From the IMG/VR virus record IMGVR_UViG_2548876945_000011, positions 1-41,326 of that record: a DNA stretch of 41,326 bases; one strand, written 5' to 3'. Position numbers and translations under genes: made by a program. Below are positions 8,250 to 39,348 of this stretch, piece after piece (position 1 is the first letter of the stretch; each line of letters starts with the position of its first letter). Source of the DNA: a virus. Its lineage: Duplodnaviria > Heunggongvirae > Uroviricota > Caudoviricetes. Below the pieces are notes generated by a model, which was not told the origin of the DNA, ran no database searches, and saw only the letters and a program-made list of their open reading frames with translations.

Positions 8250-8528
8250 TTAGGGAAACTGGCGTCTTGCGTGGATCACGTTTACTACTTCAACGCTTGA
8301 TGTTGTTACGCGGTATAGAATTATATAGTTAGGGTGGGCTACAATCTCACGCAAGCCAGGTACTCTGTCGCTTGGTGGGTATAAATACGGATGTTCGGAT
8401 AACGGCAGCACACAACCCCTTAATCGCTGCCATAAGCGTTCAGCCGCATCTATGTCGAAACGAGCAATATAGCTAGTTATATCATCTAGGTCGGTATCTG
8501 CGCTTTCAAGCCATAACACGGGTAACAT
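8250..8528 (-). CDS. parE: ParE/RelE-superfamily toxin
   Basis: 92-aa product from MLPVLWLESADTDLDDITSYIA... with the ParE-like C-terminal pattern; starts 1 nt after the antitoxin stop. Confidence 0.75.
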   Translation of the reverse strand: MLPVLWLESADTDLDDITSYIARFDIDAAERLWQRLRGCVLPLSEHPYLYPPSDRVPGLREIVAHPNYIILYRVTTSSVEVVNVIHARRQFP

Positions 8529-8529
8529 T

Positions 8530-8721
8530 TTACTGCTTGCTCCGTTCCTTGCGCATTTTAGCAAAGCGTTCTGCCATTCTGCGCTCAACTTCGTCATGGG
8601 GAATTGCTGGGCGCGGATCTGCAAGGCTCGTTGCTACTTTCGCACGCAGCCATTCGTTGTAACTGTTTTCTTGTTCAATGGTTTCAAATTCAGAAACCAT
8701 TGGTGAAAGGGCTCTATTCAT
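8530..8721 (-). CDS. paaA: Antitoxin of the ParE module (PaaA-like)
   Basis: 63-aa product MNRALSPMVSEFETIEQENSYNEWLRAK... with GGAGG RBS, immediately upstream of the toxin; resembles PaaA2 as I remember it. Confidence 0.6.
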   Translation of the reverse strand: MNRALSPMVSEFETIEQENSYNEWLRAKVATSLADPRPAIPHDEVERRMAERFAKMRKERSKQ

Positions 8722-8741
8722 GTTTCCTCCGGTTTTATAAC

Positions 8742-9137
8742 TCAGGCGCGGCGGCATTTTTGCGCCGCAATCCATCTCGCTATGAGATCTTCCATTGATT
8801 CTTTTTTCTGCTTTAACTCGCTGATTATCTGGCGTTGCTCATCCTCAGGGAAGGCTGAAAAAATCTGCAATAATTCCAGTTGATTAGACGTTAACCCTGC
8901 ATGTGGTGGAGAAGCTTCCGGTTGTTCTGCGTATTCCGCATCCAGATACCCTTCCGGCATCCCGTATGTTTGCTCTATTCTTCTGGCAGCCTTTTCTCCA
9001 AACGAGGCCCTCCCACTCATTAGTTGAGATAGGTAGCTCTTCTCTTTGGGTGGCAGAGTTTTATCTTTAAACCACTCCTTGAGACGTAAACGGCGAATTT
9101 CTTTTTTTTGCATGTGGTAATTATCTTTAGTAATCAC
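8742..9137 (-). CDS. paaR: HTH XRE-family repressor (CI analogue, PaaR/RacR-like) lacking a peptidase domain
   Basis: 123-131 aa with HTH (KSYLSQLMSGRASFGEKAARRIEQ); divergent from ydaS; first gene of the repressor-antitoxin-toxin operon. The first in-frame codon is GTG at 9137; the first ATG is at 9113. Confidence 0.7.
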   Translation of the reverse strand: MITKDNYHMQKKEIRRLRLKEWFKDKTLPPKEKSYLSQLMSGRASFGEKAARRIEQTYGMPEGYLDAEYAEQPEASPPHAGLTSNQLELLQIFSAFPEDEQRQIISELKQKKESMEDLIARWIAAQKCRRA

Positions 9138-9200
9138 TAAACAAGCAAATACTTGACTTAATGGTTTATTAAATACTAAACTCGCAAAAAAACACTAAAC
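9136..9200. promoter_or_regulatory. Divergent promoter/operator region (PR-like) with three ACTAAAC repeats
   Basis: ACTAAAC at 9136-9142, 9175-9181 and 9194-9200; TTGACT at 9153-9158 with 18-bp spacer to TAAACT at 9177-9182, upstream of ydaS. Confidence 0.45.
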
Positions 9201-9210
9201 CGAGGAAGGT

Positions 9211-9513
9211 ATGACATTAAAAGAGTTTATTAAATCATTGAGGGTTGGTGATGCTAAGAAATTCGCGGCCAGACTTGGTGTATCGCCATCTTACTTATCG
9301 CAAATGGCGTCTGGACGAGCAGCTATATCTCCAACCCGCGCCCTTATGATCGAATCTGCGACGGAAGGCCAAGTAAGTAGGGCGGAGCTACGACCCCATG
9401 ATTGGGAGCTTATTTGGCCTGAGTATGCGAGCGGCATTCGTTTGGGGCAAACACATGTAGTTCATGCTGAAGGTGATTGTAGTGCATGCTTATCTGATGG
9501 AGTTGATTCATGA
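9211..9513 (+). CDS. ydaS: YdaS-like Cro-type HTH regulator
   Basis: 100-aa ORF (MTLKEFIKSLRVGDAKKFAARLGVSPSYLSQ...) transcribed divergently from the repressor; matches my memory of Rac YdaS. Confidence 0.75.
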   Translation: MTLKEFIKSLRVGDAKKFAARLGVSPSYLSQMASGRAAISPTRALMIESATEGQVSRAELRPHDWELIWPEYASGIRLGQTHVVHAEGDCSACLSDGVDS

Positions 9514-9935
9514 AAATCAAGCATGAACACATCCGCATGGCGATGAATGCCTGGGCGCATCCGGACGGTGAAAAAGTTCCGGCAGCTGAAATAACCAGGG
9601 CTTATTTTGAACTGGGTATGACGTTCCCAGAACTGTATGACGACAGCCATCCGGAAGCCCTGGCTCGTAATACCCAGAAAATTTTCCGCTGGGTGGAGAA
9701 AGACACCCCTGATGCGGTTAAAAAAATTCAGGCGCTGTTACCGGCGATCGAAAAGGCAATGCCACCTCTGCTGGTGGCCCGAATGCGCAGCCACAGTTCA
9801 GCCTATTTTCGGGAGCTGGTGGAGACGCGGGAACGACTGGTGAGAGACGCTGATGATTTTGTCGCAGTGGCGATCGCTGGTTTCAATCAGATGAATCGTG
9901 GTGGCCCGGCGGGAAATGCCGTGGTCGTTCATTAA
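9510..9935 (+). CDS. ydaT: YdaT-like protein (CII-like regulator/toxin family)
   Basis: 141-aa ORF overlapping the ydaS stop by 4 nt (MKIKHEHIRMAMNAWAHPDGEK...). Confidence 0.75.
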   Translation: MKIKHEHIRMAMNAWAHPDGEKVPAAEITRAYFELGMTFPELYDDSHPEALARNTQKIFRWVEKDTPDAVKKIQALLPAIEKAMPPLLVARMRSHSSAYFRELVETRERLVRDADDFVAVAIAGFNQMNRGGPAGNAVVVH

Positions 9936-9956
9936 GAATGGTATAGGAGAAAATCG

Positions 9957-10250
9957 ATGACATTTACAAATGAAGGTCGAATTGTTTTTGATTTTGAGTA
10001 CGAAACTCCATTGCAGAGATTGATTATGTTAAGAATTTTCTGCTCCGGGAGTGGCGATGGTGGGCGTGAAAAGCGTTTTGAAGATCAGGAATTCCGACGT
10101 TTTTGTTGTTGTACGTTTGATGAGTTTGAGCAGGCTATCGCCAAACTTATCGAGATGGGGGTGATTCATAAAATAAGTTATGGATATCAATACGGAAAGC
10201 CATCAAGTGGTTACATCATCAAAGATCCAGATGAAATTATTCAGTTATGA
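9957..10250 (+). CDS. Hypothetical protein
   Basis: 97-aa ORF with GGAGA RBS, overlapping the start of the replication initiator gene. Confidence 0.5.
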   Translation: MTFTNEGRIVFDFEYETPLQRLIMLRIFCSGSGDGGREKRFEDQEFRRFCCCTFDEFEQAIAKLIEMGVIHKISYGYQYGKPSSGYIIKDPDEIIQL

Positions 10251-11212
10251 GTCTTCTTTTTGCTGAACGCCCGCTGGTTATTAACACGCAGCTGGCGATG
10301 AAAATTGGTCTGAACGAAGCCATCGTGTTGCAGCAGCTGCATTACTGGTTGAGAGATACCGGTTCCGGCATGGAATGTGATGGTGTTCGCTGGATTTATA
10401 ACACAACAGAACAATGGCTGGAACAGTTCCCGTTCTGGTCAGAGTCAACGTTAAAACGCGCATTTGCAAGTCTGAAAGCGCTGGGGCTTTTGCGTTGTGA
10501 AAAGCTCAACAAATCAAAGCGTGACATGACTAATTTTTACACGATTAATTACGAGAGCGAGCTTTTAGATGGTGGCAAAGTGAGCGAATCCATCAGGTCA
10601 AAATGCGCCGCTCCATCAGGTCAAAATGACACGATGGAAGAGGCCAAAATGGCACGCTCCATTGGCTCAAAACGACCCAATGTCATCGGGTCAAAATGGC
10701 CTGATGATCTTACAGAGAATACAACAGAGATTACTACAGAGAATAAAAACACTTCTCGTCCGGAAGCTTTGCAACCGGACATGCAGACGGCTGAACAGGA
10801 TTTTTTAACCCGACACCCTGACGCGGTTGTGTTCAGTGCGAAAAAACGCCAGTGGGGCAACCAGGAGGATTTAGCGTGTGCGCAGTGGATCTGGGGACGA
10901 ATCGTGAGTCTTTACGAGCAGGCTGCCAGCGATGATGGCGAAATCATGCGACCGAAAGAACCCAACTGGACTGCATGGGCCAATGATGTGCGCACAATGC
11001 GGATGCTGGATGGCAGAACTCACAGACAAATTTGCGAAATGTTTGGTCGGGTACAGCGGGATCCATTCTGGGTAAAAAACGTCATGAGCCCGTCAAAGCT
11101 TCGCGAAAAATGGGATGAGCTGGTTATTCGTCTGGGGCGTTCACCTGTACAGCGTTGCGTGAATCACATTTCTGAACCGGACACCGAAATTCCGCCGGGC
11201 TTCAGGGGGTAA
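10247..11212 (+). CDS. Replication initiator / replisome organiser (lambda O-like)
   Basis: 321-aa ORF immediately upstream of the DnaC-like gene; contains iterons inside its coding sequence, as lambda O contains ori. Confidence 0.65.
   Translation: MSLLFAERPLVINTQLAMKIGLNEAIVLQQLHYWLRDTGSGMECDGVRWIYNTTEQWLEQFPFWSESTLKRAFASLKALGLLRCEKLNKSKRDMTNFYTINYESELLDGGKVSESIRSKCAAPSGQNDTMEEAKMARSIGSKRPNVIGSKWPDDLTENTTEITTENKNTSRPEALQPDMQTAEQDFLTRHPDAVVFSAKKRQWGNQEDLACAQWIWGRIVSLYEQAASDDGEIMRPKEPNWTAWANDVRTMRMLDGRTHRQICEMFGRVQRDPFWVKNVMSPSKLREKWDELVIRLGRSPVQRCVNHISEPDTEIPPGFRG
10592..10698. repeat. Candidate replication origin: five iterons (consensus ATCrGGTCAAAATG)
   Basis: Direct repeats starting near 10592, 10615, 10638, 10661 and 10685 at about 23-bp spacing, followed by three ACAGAGAwT repeats at 10711-10745. 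Confidence 0.6.
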
Positions 11213-11218
11213 CGAAGC

Positions 11219-11719
11219 ATGAAAAATATTGCGACAGGCGGTGTTCTTGAACGCATCCGTAAGCTGGCTCCGCAGCATGTAACCGCGCCATACCGAACAG
11301 TGGACGAGTGGCGCGAGTGGCAACTTGCTGAAGGCCAGAAACGTAGCGAGGAGATCAACCGCCTGAATCGCCAGTTGCGGGTGGAAAAAATTCTGAATCG
11401 CTCAGGCATCCAGCCGTTGCACCGCAAGTGCTCGTTTGCGAATTACCAGGTGCAGAACGAAGGGCAGCGATACGCGTTAAGCCAGGCGAAATCCATCGCC
11501 GATGAACTGATGACCGGGTGTACAAATTTTGCGTTCAGCGGAAAACCTGGTACCGGGAAAAATCACTTAGCGGCAGCTATCGGGAATCGCCTGCTGAAAG
11601 ACGGTCAGACAGTGATTGTGGTTACCGTGGCTGATGTTATGAGCGCCCTGCACGCCAGCTATGACGACGGGCAGTCAGGCACGCAAAAGTTGCAGGACTG
11701 GATGATGCCGATACCGTAA
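11219..11719 (+). CDS. DnaC-like helicase loader, apparently C-terminally truncated
   Basis: Walker A GKPGTGKNHLAAAIG present, but the ORF stops at 166 aa, before the expected Walker B region, against about 245 aa for DnaC-family proteins. Confidence 0.6.
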   Translation: MKNIATGGVLERIRKLAPQHVTAPYRTVDEWREWQLAEGQKRSEEINRLNRQLRVEKILNRSGIQPLHRKCSFANYQVQNEGQRYALSQAKSIADELMTGCTNFAFSGKPGTGKNHLAAAIGNRLLKDGQTVIVVTVADVMSALHASYDDGQSGTQKLQDWMMPIP

Positions 11720-11876
11720 CGCTTAAGGAAGTGACAGAAGCATTGTTGCATTGTGCGGAACAGATTCGCGCGCCTGAATAATTAAATTTAGTGTTGTAAA
11801 TAAAATTTAATCCTTAACCGGAGGGATTTCTGCACCCTCAGAACATCAGGAGGCCGCCCGAAAGGGCGGTAATGAA

Positions 11877-12059
11877 ATGCGAAAGTTCAGAATAATTATT
11901 GAAACGGGAATAGCTGGTGGAGATTTTGAGGATGTATTCGAAGTGGATGATGGTGCGACACCAGATGAAATACAGGACGAAGCAAAAGAAATTTTCTTTA
12001 ACTACTGCAATTACTCATATCACGAAATAAAAGATGAGGAGGAAGAACAAAATGGCTGA
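11877..12059 (+). CDS. Small highly acidic protein
   Basis: 60 aa with 18 D/E against 5 K/R; AGGAGG lies 23 nt upstream, separated from the ATG by a CCGCCC-GAAA-GGGCGG hairpin. Confidence 0.45.
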   Translation: MRKFRIIIETGIAGGDFEDVFEVDDGATPDEIQDEAKEIFFNYCNYSYHEIKDEEEEQNG

Positions 12060-12228
12060 TTTTGGTTCAACTAAATACAACGTCAGTTTTGAAGAATGGC
12101 ATGAACTGTTAATGGACTATGCAGAGTTACGCGGTGGAAGTGCCGCTGATGCTGAAGCATGGCGTGATGACTACGAAGCAGGAAAAACTCCGGTCGAAGC
12201 ATATTGTGATGAGTGGGGCGATGAATGA
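12052..12228 (+). CDS. Small acidic protein
   Basis: 58 aa from MADFGSTKYNV... with 16 D/E against 4 K/R; GGAGGAAG RBS; start overlaps the previous gene's end. Confidence 0.45.
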   Translation: MADFGSTKYNVSFEEWHELLMDYAELRGGSAADAEAWRDDYEAGKTPVEAYCDEWGDE

Positions 12229-12439
12229 GCGAGATTAATTATCAGGAAGGACATGATTTCGTTATGCTTGATGGAGGGCGCTATATATTTTCCTCGCACC
12301 TGTGATAAAAATGATGAGCCGAGACTGTATTTACGGGACGCTGAGAGAATACCATAGAAAAGCTTATCTAACTTAAGTAGAATTGCTGCGGGTGCTTGAG
12401 GCTATCTGCCTCAGGCATGAACACCAAAGGCAGATAGAG

Positions 12440-12510
12440 AAAAGCCCCAGTTAACATTACGCGTCCTGCAAGACGCTTAACATTAATCTGAGGCTCAATC
12501 TATGAACGGC
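12440..12510 (-). ncRNA. sok: Sok-like antisense RNA (antitoxin of the hok locus)
   Basis: Minus-strand promoter TTGCCT (12545-12540), 17-bp spacer, TAACCT (12522-12517); the transcript would be complementary to the mok start region. Ends are approximate. Confidence 0.4.
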
Positions 12511-12558
12511 AAATCTAGGTTAGCCTCTTACGTGCCGAAAGGCAAGGAGAAGCAGGCT

Positions 12559-12714
12559 ATGAAGCAGCAAAAGGCGATGTTAATCGCCCTGATCGTCATC
12601 TGTTTAACCGTCATAGTGACGGCACTGGTAACGAGGAAAGACCTCTGCGAGGTACGAATCCGAACCGGCCAGACGGAGGTCGCTGTTTTCGTAGACTACG
12701 AATCTGAGAAGTAA
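12559..12714 (+). CDS. hok: Hok/Gef-family type I membrane toxin
   Basis: 51-aa MKQQKAMLIALIVICLTVIVTALVTRKDLCEVRIRTGQTEVAVF...; closely matches the HokD/RelF and HokC sequences I remember; in-frame mok-like leader from 12502. Confidence 0.8.
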   Translation: MKQQKAMLIALIVICLTVIVTALVTRKDLCEVRIRTGQTEVAVFVDYESEK

Positions 12715-14347: not shown

Positions 14348-14407
14348 TCCGAAGCGCCAGCAAAATCTGGCGTCGGGATTGGAACCCCGGATATCGAAAC
14401 GGTGCAT

Positions 14408-14427
14408 ACCGCGCTGGCGGTTTTTTT
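14408..14427 (+). terminator. Candidate tR'-like terminator
   Basis: ACCGC-GCTG-GCGGT hairpin followed by T7, about 60 nt downstream of the candidate late promoter. Confidence 0.4.
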
Positions 14428-14590
14428 ATGCGCTAAGCACAGTCACATTCGCGATTTATGGCGGGCTGTGTGGGGGCACCGAAAGGTGCACCGGATGTTT
14501 CGACCGGTAGTTCCAACCCTGCACAGTTCGCCACCCGATGATTGGAACCTGAAGGTGGTGAGGTAAAAATTATCGAAACGCGAGGTCGTT

Positions 14591-38853: not shown

Positions 38854-39348
38854 TTACCGTCCAATGATTAACGCTGAGACGCTGGTATCTGAAGGAAAGG
38901 CTGCATTCAGTGGTTTGTCGACTTTGAACACAATCGTATTATTCCCCCTGACAGCGGCAAAAGAACAAACCGCCGTCGCGTATGAACCTGTAATATTACT
39001 GGATACACCACCATAAGCTGTTGTTGATACCAGAGGGATAACGCCCAGCACCTTATTAGGAAATACAAAGGGCAATGTGGCTGTGGCAATATAAGACTTA
39101 TTAGAACCTGTAATGGCATAAGCATTATCAGTCATTCCATTCATCGCCACTGGACCGCTTATACTTACAGTAACCATCTGAATGATTAGCCCGTCAGGTT
39201 GACGAATCACAAAATTTCCATTGCCACCAGTAACCGTCCAGAAAGACATATCAGGGATTTGGTTTTCCCCGTTGCCCACATTTCGTTTTGCCGCTTCTCC
39301 CAAACCAACGTTTATGAAAATGCAGAAATAACGAGCAAATGGCATCAT
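38854..39348 (-). CDS. Alternative tail fiber C-terminal segment (expressed only after inversion)
   Basis: Minus-strand ORF whose N-terminal region encodes GLGE across the right crossover site, matching ENLGLGEG at the left site; lacks its own plausible start. Confidence 0.55.
   Translation of the reverse strand: MMPFARYFCIFINVGLGEAAKRNVGNGENQIPDMSFWTVTGGNGNFVIRQPDGLIIQMVTVSISGPVAMNGMTDNAYAITGSNKSYIATATLPFVFPNKVLGVIPLVSTTAYGGVSSNITGSYATAVCSFAAVRGNNTIVFKVDKPLNAAFPSDTSVSALIIGR
39295..39320. repeat. Right crossover site of the invertible segment
   Basis: TTCTCCCAAACCAACGTTTATGAAAA; inverted match to the left site with identical central dinucleotide after inversion. Confidence 0.65.

Follow-up and report, generated by a model that had tools for sequence, protein, structure and literature searches.

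A probable lambda-type replication origin inside a prophage initiator gene, and a 12-nt motif adjoining its iterons

Where does the lambdoid prophage contained in this 41,326-nt stretch of DNA (the window) initiate its replication, and what is the function of the two sets of short repeats that lie inside the gene for its presumed initiator? To judge from the sequence, the region 10568-10780 is very likely the replication origin of the prophage, located where its own initiator gene encodes a linker. The array itself would be an ordinary lambda-type origin, previously uncharacterised, and lambda is the textbook case of an origin in such a place. Of 5426 complete E. coli genomes, 1846 carry the gene under the label "hypothetical protein", and this part of the result annotates it. 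Possibly the weightier result is that a 12-nt unit adjoining the array has the same bases at its synonymous sites in organisms as distant as Bacillus, Escherichia, and Chloroflexi.

The initiator gene and its neighborhood

The genes of the module are ordered cI, cro, cII, initiator and DnaC-like. A YdaS/Cro-like gene (9211-9513) and a YdaT/cII-like gene (9510-9935) are located upstream of the initiator gene, and a PR-like promoter candidate on the plus strand (9153-9182; consensus match only) could drive the cro-like, cII-like, and initiator genes, with transcription passing through the origin. The DnaC-like helicase-loader gene (11219-11719, plus strand; IstB_IS21) is truncated, given that homology to full-length genes stops at 11680 and that only positions 1-160 of the 248 in the PRK12377 profile are covered. 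Because this adjoining loader gene is truncated, the origin may be silent in this particular prophage unless host DnaC takes over. The same module is present in the named phages mEp460, PhiR42_1, and HannyBb. In BL21, the homologue of the initiator gene sits among dicB, hokD, and rem, a neighborhood which we take to be the Qin prophage and not Rac. Both BL21 Qin and PhiR42_1 are without the DnaC-like gene, and host DnaC presumably serves in them.

The initiator gene (10247-11212, plus strand) encodes a protein of 321 amino acids which consists of a winged-helix-like N-domain, a disordered linker, and a C-domain like that of lambda O, and which matches phrog_391, "replication initiation O-like" (E value 9e-96). 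Searches of Pfam and NCBIfam with the whole initiator returned the DnaT-like tail and no other domain match. The helical C-domain (residues 183-296; 10793-11134, plus strand) is homologous to that of lambda O: residues 147-294 share 34% identity with lambda O over 148 residues by BLASTP (E value 1e-26), and hhalign aligned the C-domain only, with a probability of 95%. It is followed by a C-terminal tail ending in SEPDTEIPPGFRG (11147-11209, plus strand), which is almost the same as that of E. coli DnaT. The N-terminal domain (approximately residues 10-105; 10274-10561, plus strand), the presumed iteron binder, has no match to Phage_rep_O or TIGR01610 (phage_O_Nterm) in Pfam and NCBIfam, whereas lambda O itself matches with an E value of 5e-39. 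This qualifies the description of the product as O-like in the first-pass annotation.

The N-domain was modelled with AF2, which gave an H-H-beta-beta-H-H-beta-beta pattern at a pLDDT of about 50-75. Confidence in the model as a whole is low (mean pLDDT 55), its alignment being a shallow one with 14 close sequences, and the model is too weak for a firm fold assignment. The top Foldseek matches to this low-confidence domain model, 4pql, 5kbj, and 4pt7, are weak (E values 6e-3 to 4e-2; TM 0.5-0.57); these structures are the N-domains of staphylococcal plasmid RepA initiators (pSK41 and pTZ2162 RepA). Across 37 initiator clusters, residues Y33, W34, and L76 hardly vary. Between the two folded domains, residues 108-177 (10568-10777) have an AF2 pLDDT of about 25. 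This predicted disordered linker is rich in S, K, T, and E, and its coding DNA comprises the iterons, the 12-nt units, and an inverted repeat.

The iteron array and the adjoining 12-nt units

Five direct repeats of 23 nt, which form one family, occupy 10591-10706 at successive spacings of 23, 23, 23, and 24 nt. They are iteron 1 (CATCAGGTCAAAATGCGCCGCTC; 10591-10613), iteron 2 (CATCAGGTCAAAATGACACGATG; 10614-10636), iteron 3 (GAAGAGGCCAAAATGGCACGCTC; 10637-10659), iteron 4 (CATTGGCTCAAAACGACCCAATG; 10660-10682), and iteron 5 (CATCGGGTCAAAATGGCCTGATG; 10684-10706), the last of which is located 17 nt before the block of 12-nt units. All five are dyad-symmetric around an A-tract, with centers at 10602, 10625, 10648, 10671, and 10695, respectively. 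Iteron 2 is the best palindrome of the array (10 of 13 arm pairs), and in iteron 4 both arms are altered together (CATTGG/CCAATG). A degenerate sixth iteron (10568-10590; center approximately 10579) lies in register 23 nt 5' of iteron 1 with weak dyad symmetry (6 of 13 pairs); its equivalent is well formed (GAGGTCAAAGTG) in mEp460 and in Klebsiella phage Kp4882-3. The folding of the array is far better than that of shuffled sequences (z -3.6). In a test seeded with a copy from the sequence itself, the in-register chain numbered 4, against a longest chain of 2 in 300 dinucleotide-preserving shuffles of the initiator gene. Copies 3 and 4 differ more from each other than from the consensus.

Immediately beyond the array, three ACAGAGAwTACw units of 12 nt follow on the plus strand (10712-10723, 10724-10735, and 10736-10747), in frame with the initiator gene, and form the presumed unwinding or helicase-entry region. 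The shorter pattern ACAGAGAWT occurs three times in the window (10712, 10724, and 10736; period 12 nt), with 0.6 occurrences expected. The stretch 10710-10749 is the lowest-stability 40-mer of the gene (-44.3 kcal/mol, versus a regional mean of -54.3 with a standard deviation of 4.5). On the coding strand, purines make up 70% of the 33-nt core at 10712-10744. Its AT content of 67% is just moderate, and nearby intergenic stretches are even less stable. As single-stranded DNA the block has no structure on either strand, and in every unit one strand has CTG and the other TTA or CTA. On the right side of the presumed unwinding region is the inverted repeat GTCCGG-N11-CCGGAC (10758-10780; hairpin -8.1 kcal/mol, z -2.1), which is present in many relatives as GTCCGGTTGCG-N-CGCAACCRGAC.

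The first-pass annotation had placed a likely lambda-like origin here, and every sequence-level test agrees with it. Its five copies at about 23-bp spacing are borne out by the repeat search, and iterons and 12-nt units are all inside the open reading frame 10247-11212, as it had stated. Of the 14-mer that it had given as present five times (ATCrGGTCAAAATG; ATCRGGTCAAAATG), just three exact occurrences exist in the window, at 10592, 10615, and 10685; the remaining two copies (10638 and 10661) have three mismatches each, yet are in register. Its three ACAGAGAwT repeats are present, with limits (10711-10745) that were one base off at each end. The repeats were undervalued there: they are real, and conservation of the motif as DNA extends far outside this initiator family.

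The iterons are features of the DNA and not of the peptide. Their copies translate as SIRSK, SGQN, EAKM, IGSK, and IGSK, and since a period of 23 nt places them in all three reading frames, they are not a peptide repeat. In relatives, the five repeats keep their number, their period, and their register with the 12-nt block, and the repeat core co-varies with the N-domain, changing from GGTCAAAATGAC to GGGCAAATTGCCC, GTGATCAAnnTG, and ATGCAGGAAAnCTGCA as N-domain identity drops from 100% to 33%. The iteron DNA is 79-85% identical, compared to 67-74% for the DNA that encodes the N-domain.

By analogy with lambda, initiation would proceed in four steps. Dimers of the winged-helix N-domain would bind the five or six dyad-symmetric 23-bp iterons, a spacing equivalent to 2.2 helical turns. 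The bound dimers would then wrap the DNA into a nucleoprotein core, and the stress of wrapping would melt the adjoining, least stable 36-40 bp, i.e., the three ACAGAGAwTACw units. Finally, the lambda-O-like C-domain together with the DnaT-like tail would recruit a DnaB-loader complex to the melted single-stranded DNA, from which origin activity would follow.

Conservation of the 12-nt unit and alternative roles of the repeats

At least 120 viral contigs and no fewer than 120 genomes (GC 0.22-0.64) contain the exact 12-mer pattern. It is located in initiator genes of at least nine bacterial phyla, where it adjoins the repeats of related genes, and it recurs beside otherwise unrelated iterons in the initiator genes of many phages and bacteria. 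A homologous N-domain precedes it in 92 of the 120 genome matches listed, while the partner genes downstream are varied, as are the helicases and loaders that adjoining genes encode. Nearly all of the genome matches listed lie on the coding strand and share one frame, and T-E-x-T is encoded in 105 of 120. Some copies are nonetheless outside long open reading frames or are translated in another frame. Two matches, from a Nostocales cyanobacterium and a DPANN archaeon, were discarded as false positives, being unrelated D-Y-N-R repeat proteins in another frame. The 8.4-kb plasmids of Bacillus velezensis, which are rolling-circle plasmids whose rep gene spans the record start, were dropped as a clean non-coding case; they are ambiguous, as the block keeps an open frame of 88 amino acids.

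Codon usage within the unit is nearly fixed. In a codon-degenerate search, ACA and GAG were used in 76-77 of 80 among the matches listed. In the third unit of 97 non-redundant initiators, which the search pattern left unfixed, ACA accounts for 38 of 39 and GAG for 39 of 39; these counts depend in part on the collecting pattern and are not fully independent, because tandem units can homogenise one another, so that the codon-degenerate scan among the matches listed is the cleaner test. Changes in the third unit at ACA were to TCA, GCA, or CCA in 15 cases and to the synonymous ACG in one, and those at GAG were to GAT, AAG, or CAG in 21 cases and to the synonymous GAA in none. Position 8 of the unit is free, encoding N, I, T, or S. 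As a control, the conserved N-domain residues of the same genes use all synonymous codons. These comparisons indicate that the unit is under sequence-specific selection at the DNA level across many phyla, and it is therefore more than a generic AT-rich stretch.

The identity at synonymous sites, the unrelated iterons, and the differing helicases and loaders point to specific recognition of the 12-mer sequence during phage replication, at the step where the DNA is unwound or the helicase is loaded. The candidate readers are a conserved part of the initiator that acts on single-stranded DNA, the replicative helicase, or the primase. Readings as an IHF site, a DnaA-trio, a primase site, or an R-loop were considered, but none is convincing for the full range of host phyla. 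A literature search for the DNA motif on both strands and for the encoded peptide, and another on oriJ/Rac and phage iteron origins, returned nothing relevant; figures and subscription papers, which lay outside these searches, may describe the motif. The putative sequence-specific unwinding-region motif is apparently undescribed so far. We tentatively propose, as a possibility that we do not regard as the likelier outcome, that ACAGAGAnTACw, in 2-5 tandem copies directly past the iterons, may be an ancient and previously undescribed sequence-specific origin element, recognised in its DNA form by a conserved partner, and common to one large superfamily of winged-helix initiators of phages, prophages, and plasmids in at least nine bacterial phyla.

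It is unlikely that the block is instead kept mainly as a homology patch for recombination between N-terminal modules, which would carry origin specificity, and C-terminal modules, which would carry loader specificity, and not as a functional unwinding element. Mosaic joints do flank the block, as the shared segment of the query is 58-534 in Klebsiella phages, 497/500-966 in O157-type genes, and 460-499 only in Stx phages. Likewise, of 137 element-bearing open reading frames, 50 have just the N-domain in common with the window and 6 just the C-domain, with diverse partners downstream. Recombination cannot, however, explain why the block is identical in phages from Firmicutes, Proteobacteria, Chloroflexi, Cyanobacteria, and CPR bacteria, given that their flanks do not align and that their GC content spans the range given above, and the fixed place of the block right after the last iteron, together with its low stability, fits a role in the origin. 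The two roles are not mutually exclusive.

We consider it quite unlikely that the iterons are sites at which the initiator or another regulator mediates autoregulation, copy control, or exclusion, with replication starting elsewhere in the prophage. Plasmid iterons also act in copy control and autorepression, but the locus has the full lambda-like order of iterons, low-stability asymmetric block, and inverted repeat at a fixed distance, conserved with the gene. No DnaA box (TTWTNCACA) is present anywhere in the window, where 4.2 would be expected by chance, nor does the 41-kb window contain a second comparable repeat array.

Selection of the 12-mer at the RNA level, for example as a translational pause that would give the emerging N-domain time to bind the template encoding it and so make the initiator cis-acting, is very unlikely. 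The near-restriction of the element to the coding strand and to one frame speaks for it, and conserved wobble positions are also what RNA-level selection would yield. An Rfam search of 10200-11250 at permissive thresholds gave nothing relevant, however, and the unit has no structure and no apparent strong complementarity to the anti-Shine-Dalgarno sequence; copies outside open reading frames and in other frames also argue against it. We know of no universal pausing mechanism for such a sequence.

That the repeats are the by-product of a repeated peptide in a low-complexity linker, without a role at the DNA level, is hardly credible, for although the region encodes a predicted disordered linker and the 12-nt units are in frame with a recurring T-E-x-T, the iterons are spread over three frames, the synonymous positions of the 12-mer are fixed while a non-synonymous one is free, control codons in the same genes vary freely, and a few copies lie outside long open reading frames or in another frame. 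The frame analysis already contradicts this reading, which is the peptide part of what the first-pass annotation had named as its refuting case.

Comparison with known systems

The probable origin resembles lambda ori in gene O in having dyad-symmetric iterons with an A-tract center, spaced 20-24 bp apart in the linker-coding DNA of the initiator, followed by a low-stability region that is purine-rich on the coding strand and by an inverted repeat at the equivalent place. The initiator C-domain is homologous, and the module order of repressor, cro, cII, initiator, and loader is the same. In contrast, lambda has four iterons of another sequence, as opposed to five to six here, the N-terminal family of lambda O has no match to the N-domain of this initiator, the partner is P and not a DnaC-like protein, and ACAAAAGA occurs merely twice at the place where three conserved copies of the 12-mer are found here.

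The Rac module (ydaS-ydaT-ydaU-ydaV) has the same gene order and YdaS/YdaT-type regulators, and YdaU has internal repeats (AAGCAGATGTTCAA, four copies). An active origin, oriJ, has been reported for Rac (PMC3945230). The K-12 Rac initiator YdaU is, however, a DUF1376 protein of another family, with different repeats of its own and without the ACAGAGA block. Of the two comparisons suggested by the first-pass annotation, the one with lambdoid phages, made here with lambda ori, yields a like layout, and the one with Rac yields a different initiator.

The staphylococcal RepA_N initiators (pSK41 and pTZ2162) provide the best solved-structure match to the predicted N-domain, a weak one (E value 6e-3) obtained with a modest model. 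In the RepA_N family, the iterons are located centrally in the rep gene, between the regions coding for the N- and C-domains. These initiators differ from that of the window in lacking a sequence-level match to it and in their C-domains.

The 13-mers of oriC, the DnaA-trios, and the plasmid 13-mers, one strand of which is bound by Rep, are short tandem repeats beside initiator sites, in which the sequence, and not AT content alone, is conserved. The unit described here differs from oriC 13-mers and DnaA-trios in its sequence, its 12-nt period, and the lack of DnaA boxes in the window, but it shares with all three the character of short, tandem, sequence-conserved repeats that adjoin (presumed) initiator sites. 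If the proposal of a widespread origin element is true, the 12-mer would be the phage counterpart of the oriC 13-mers and DnaA-trios, concealed in a coding region, and it could serve as a simple sequence marker to locate origins in phage, prophage, and plasmid genomes.

Iterons within the initiator gene

The whole repeat region, iterons and ACAGAGAWT units alike, is contained in the initiator ORF at 10247–11212 (plus strand, 321 residues). A repeat search identified five 23-nt direct repeats at 10591–10706, with start-to-start distances of 23, 23, 23 and 24 nt. Exact copies of the 14-mer ATCRGGTCAAAATG number three in the 41-kb window, all of them within this array; the remaining two copies have three mismatches each to it, yet are in register. 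A sixth, degenerate copy lies 23 nt upstream of the first full one and is well formed in relatives, among them mEp460 and Klebsiella phage Kp4882-3. In 300 dinucleotide-preserving shuffles of the initiator gene the longest in-register chain was 2, as against 4 in the real sequence, from which the seed had been drawn. The array inside an O-like gene that the first-pass annotation had described is therefore present. The same annotation had named, as what would refute its reading, that a repeated peptide motif alone explains the repeats. Since 23 nt does not divide into whole codons, the frame shifts from one copy to the next (SIRSK, SGQN, EAKM, IGSK and IGSK), which removes this explanation.

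Each iteron is an imperfect palindrome around an A-tract, e.g., TCCATCAGGTCA-AAA-TGACACGATGGA, with dyad centres at 10602, 10625, 10648, 10671 and 10695. In copy 4 both arms are altered together (CATTGG … CCAATG). When folded as single-stranded DNA, the array far outperforms its shuffled versions (z -3.6). The iterons of lambda share this palindrome and A-tract design (ATCCCTCAAAACGAGGGA).

Relatives ranked by N-domain identity to the window were compared over the 125 nt that precede the 12-mer block. Five 23-nt repeats are found in unchanged register throughout, and their core drifts along with the N-domain, being GGTCAAAATGAC at 73–100% identity, GGGCAAATTGCCC or GGGTCAACTTGGGCC at 58–66%, GTGATCAAnnTG at 40% and ATGCAGGAAAnCTGCA at 33%. 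This co-variation is indirect, comparative evidence for recognition of the iterons by the initiator. In moderately diverged relatives the iteron DNA, which codes for a linker, is better conserved (79–85% identity) than the DNA encoding the folded N-domain (67–74%). Among 137 complete ORFs bearing the 12-mer, both domains are shared with the window in 35, the N-domain alone in 50, the C-domain alone in 6 and neither in 46, and the joints in BLAST alignments fall just past the 12-mer block. This shuffling is the classical lambdoid pattern, the N-terminal half determining specificity for the origin and the C-terminal half that for the partner.

The 12-mer block

The iterons are followed by three copies of the 12-mer ACAGAGAwTACw (10712–10747). 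ACAGAGAWT is present three times in the window versus 0.6 expected, all at 10712–10744 with a 12-nt period; the three repeats previously noted are thus real, their limits of 10711–10745 being one base off at each end. The block begins 17 nt after the last dyad centre, and 10710–10749, the presumed unwinding region, is the least stable 40 bp of the gene (-44.3 kcal/mol; 40-mers across 9000–12500 have a mean of -54.3 kcal/mol, sd 4.5). Purines make up 70% of the coding strand in the 33-nt core (10712–10744), and both strands of the block are unstructured as single-stranded DNA. An inverted repeat, GTCCGG-N11-CCGGAC, follows at 10758–10780 (hairpin -8.1 kcal/mol, z -2.1). Lambda has its parts in the same order (iterons, low-stability block, inverted repeat), and its AT-rich region at 39119–39164 (L131 1120–1165) contains ACAAAAGA twice, in a position equivalent to that of the ACAGAGA units; these copies may be related to the ACAGAGA element, in degenerate form. 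No DnaA box (TTWTNCACA) was found on either strand of the whole window, where 4.2 would be expected by chance. The homologue in E. coli 201609 (L006 1501–2478) has four 12-nt units (TENTTENTTEITTEN) rather than three, so copy number appears to vary by in-frame slippage.

Using a codon-degenerate pattern for T-E-x-T-T-E-x-T-T-E, ACA and GAG were found in 76–77 of the 80 matches listed (21–22 of 24 distinct 30-mers), the exceptions being T-E-S-T or T-E-T-T repeats in contigs with a GC of 0.23–0.33. The third unit, which the search pattern leaves unfixed, was analyzed in 140 diverse contexts. Departures from ACA were amino-acid-changing (TCA, GCA or CCA) in 15 and synonymous in 1; departures from GAG were to GAT, AAG or CAG in 21 and to GAA in none. 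Position 8 of the 12-mer is free (N, I, T or S). Among 97 non-redundant initiators, N-domain codons served as the control: its most conserved residues use every synonymous codon (Tyr, TAT 45 and TAC 49; Glu, GAA 34 and GAG 24), with Thr being ACA in 26% and Glu being GAG in 44% of cases. The corresponding figures for the third unit are 38/39 and 39/39, although, as in all these codon counts, tandem units homogenise each other. Copies located outside long ORFs, directly after iteron arrays, occur in Orenia, Planococcus and a Hyphomicrobiales MAG, and copies read in another frame in a Lachnospiraceae and a Halomonas genome; some of these may be decayed remnants. By these sequence comparisons, conservation of the 12-mer at the DNA level reaches far outside the family of the window's initiator.

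Stx, Bacillus and Staphylococcus phages match the initiator gene over these 40 nt only (BLAST). The exact pattern ACAGAGANTACNACAGAGANTAC was found in at least 120 viral contigs and gave at least 120 matches in one-genome-per-species contigs. Across the viral matches listed, GC ranges from 0.29 to 0.64, the proteins form 36 clusters (identity of at least 50%) and the motif lies mid-ORF. For the genome matches listed, the T-E frame is the longest open frame in 105 of 120 (median 317 aa), and an N-domain fitting one profile is present in 92 of 120, including Alpha-, Beta-, Gamma- and Deltaproteobacteria, Bacilli, Clostridia, Negativicutes, Chloroflexi, a cyanobacterium, Gracilibacteria, Fibrobacteres and Nitrospirae. 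Two genome matches were discarded as unrelated repeat proteins. Named phages bearing the motif infect Acinetobacter, Staphylococcus, Bacillus, Klebsiella, Escherichia, Erwinia, Pseudomonas, Burkholderia, Vibrio and Lactobacillus, and nearly all annotated records designate the gene a replication protein or helix-turn-helix regulator. The iterons directly upstream are wholly different between clusters, e.g., GGGAAAACC in Stx phages and GTCCCCGAAATCGGGGAGA in a Lachnospiraceae genome. Across 31 clusters, the downstream gene encodes a DnaB-type helicase (7), an IstB/DnaC-like loader (5), lambda P (3), DUF6475 (3) or others. Since the phage-encoded partner varies and the N-domain superfamily and host machinery are constant, the candidate reader of the 12-mer is either the initiator itself (e.g., on single-stranded DNA) or a host replication protein.

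The B. velezensis plasmid pBamNAU-B3a (8.4 kb; L303 7270–7390) contains three iterons (CCTACAGGGAAAGA) and then ACAGAGATTAC three times, upstream of a rolling-circle rep gene spanning the record start; the sole frame that stays open through the block has 88 aa. This array would be a remnant, or else a second origin, of the theta type. At least four more plasmids of B. velezensis or Bacillus sp. (8.4–8.9 kb) have the same 40-nt match, pBamNAU-B3a being the one inspected.

The initiator protein and its prophage module

A Pfam search with the initiator product returned zero domains; the product matches phrog_391, 'replication initiation O-like' (9e-96). Residues 147–294 share 34% identity (E value 1e-26; hhalign probability 95%) with the C-terminal half of lambda O. 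The N-terminal part has no match to the lambda O N-terminal family, which lambda O itself does match. The AlphaFold model (shallow alignment, mean pLDDT 55) includes a helix/beta-hairpin N-domain (residues about 10–105), a low-confidence segment (108–177; pLDDT about 25) and a helical C-domain (183–296). The low-confidence segment corresponds to nt 10568–10777, exactly the iterons, 12-mers and downstream inverted repeat. The top solved structures are N-domains of staphylococcal plasmid RepA (4pql, 5kbj, 4pt7), a weak match (E value 6e-3; TM 0.5–0.57), and among predicted viral proteins the model matches phage replication proteins with two domains.

The last 21 residues (11147–11209; …SEPDTEIPPGFRG; VQRCVNHISEPDTEIPPGFRG) are nearly identical to the C-terminal tail of E. 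coli DnaT (PDB: 2ru8, 6aep, 9zbt). In E. coli, dnaT precedes dnaC in one operon (PMC13377028), an order mirrored in the window by the initiator and a DnaC-like gene. The near-identity and matching gene order suggest that the tail is part of a loader-recruiting interface, and hint that the two either have a loader-recruiting peptide in common or share their ancestry.

The initiator is located in a Rac-like early-right module with a cI-like gene (8742–9137, minus strand), a putative PR-like promoter (9153–9182), YdaS/Cro-like (9211–9513) and YdaT/cII-like (9510–9935) genes and, after the initiator, a truncated DnaC-like helicase-loader gene (11219–11719). Compared with its full-length counterpart in E. 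coli TUM1881 (248 aa), the latter loses homology at 11680, where unrelated sequence takes over; only profile positions 1–160 of 248 are retained, and, judged by position, Walker B and later motifs should be missing. Because of this truncation, the origin may be silent here or reliant on host DnaC. Initiator homologues (at least 80% gene coverage) are present in 1846 of 5426 complete E. coli genomes, including BL21, where the neighbours are dicB, hokD and rem, a locus that we take to be the Qin prophage. The gene is also found in phages PhiR42_1, mEp460 and HannyBb, and is annotated nearly everywhere as 'hypothetical protein'. In BL21 Qin and PhiR42_1, the loader gene is absent after the initiator.

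A 97-aa ORF (9957–10250) overlaps the initiator start and matches positions 9–87 of 223 in phrog_4617, 'replication initiation protein' (E value 5e-8); it may be what is left of another initiator, or a winged-helix domain of one that stands alone. In close relatives, e.g., TUM1881, its place is taken by a longer YdaT-family gene. Left of the cI-like gene, two small overlapping minus-strand ORFs (8250–8775) have a TUM1881 counterpart annotated as a RelE/ParE-family toxin and RelB antitoxin. Rfam matches at 463–607, 2169–2347, 12390–12564 and 14354–14538 comprise ryeA/ryeB (SraC/SdsR), at the window's left end, RalA, sok antitoxin RNA, and isrK with C4 antisense RNA, and thus indicate a lambdoid prophage adjoining the ryeAB locus.

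Proposed mechanism and relation to known origins

We consider it quite probable, on this in silico evidence, that the region is, or was, the prophage origin, in support of the lambda-like origin inside the initiator gene proposed initially. In a lambda-like pathway, the initiator would be transcribed rightward through the origin, and N-domain dimers would fill the five to six iterons. The iteron DNA would wrap, with 2.2 helical turns per site and an A-tract bend in each, the neighbouring 12-mer block would melt, and the C-domain would recruit DnaB plus loader.

The iteron array itself is ordinary; it is the 12-mer that raises the significance of the region. A literature search for the sequence-specific 12-mer found no description, and an earlier one may exist. 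Only tentatively do we put forward the possibility that it is a sequence-specific origin element, pan-bacterial and not described before.

The first-pass annotation had also suggested comparison with Rac. The K-12 Rac initiator is different, namely YdaU (DUF1376), and has its own repeats without the 12-mer: AAGCAGATGTTCAA occurs four times mid-gene (L181, the ydaU region, 2472–2563) at spacings of 33, 33 and 12 nt, which makes this a place where oriJ may lie, in an initiator of another family. Lambda is a known case of an initiator gene that contains the origin. Other lambdoid phages, P22, SPP1 and RepA_N plasmids are further cases. The kind of origin is thus an established one, of the lambda type, on which the sequence-specific 12-mer is a variant feature.
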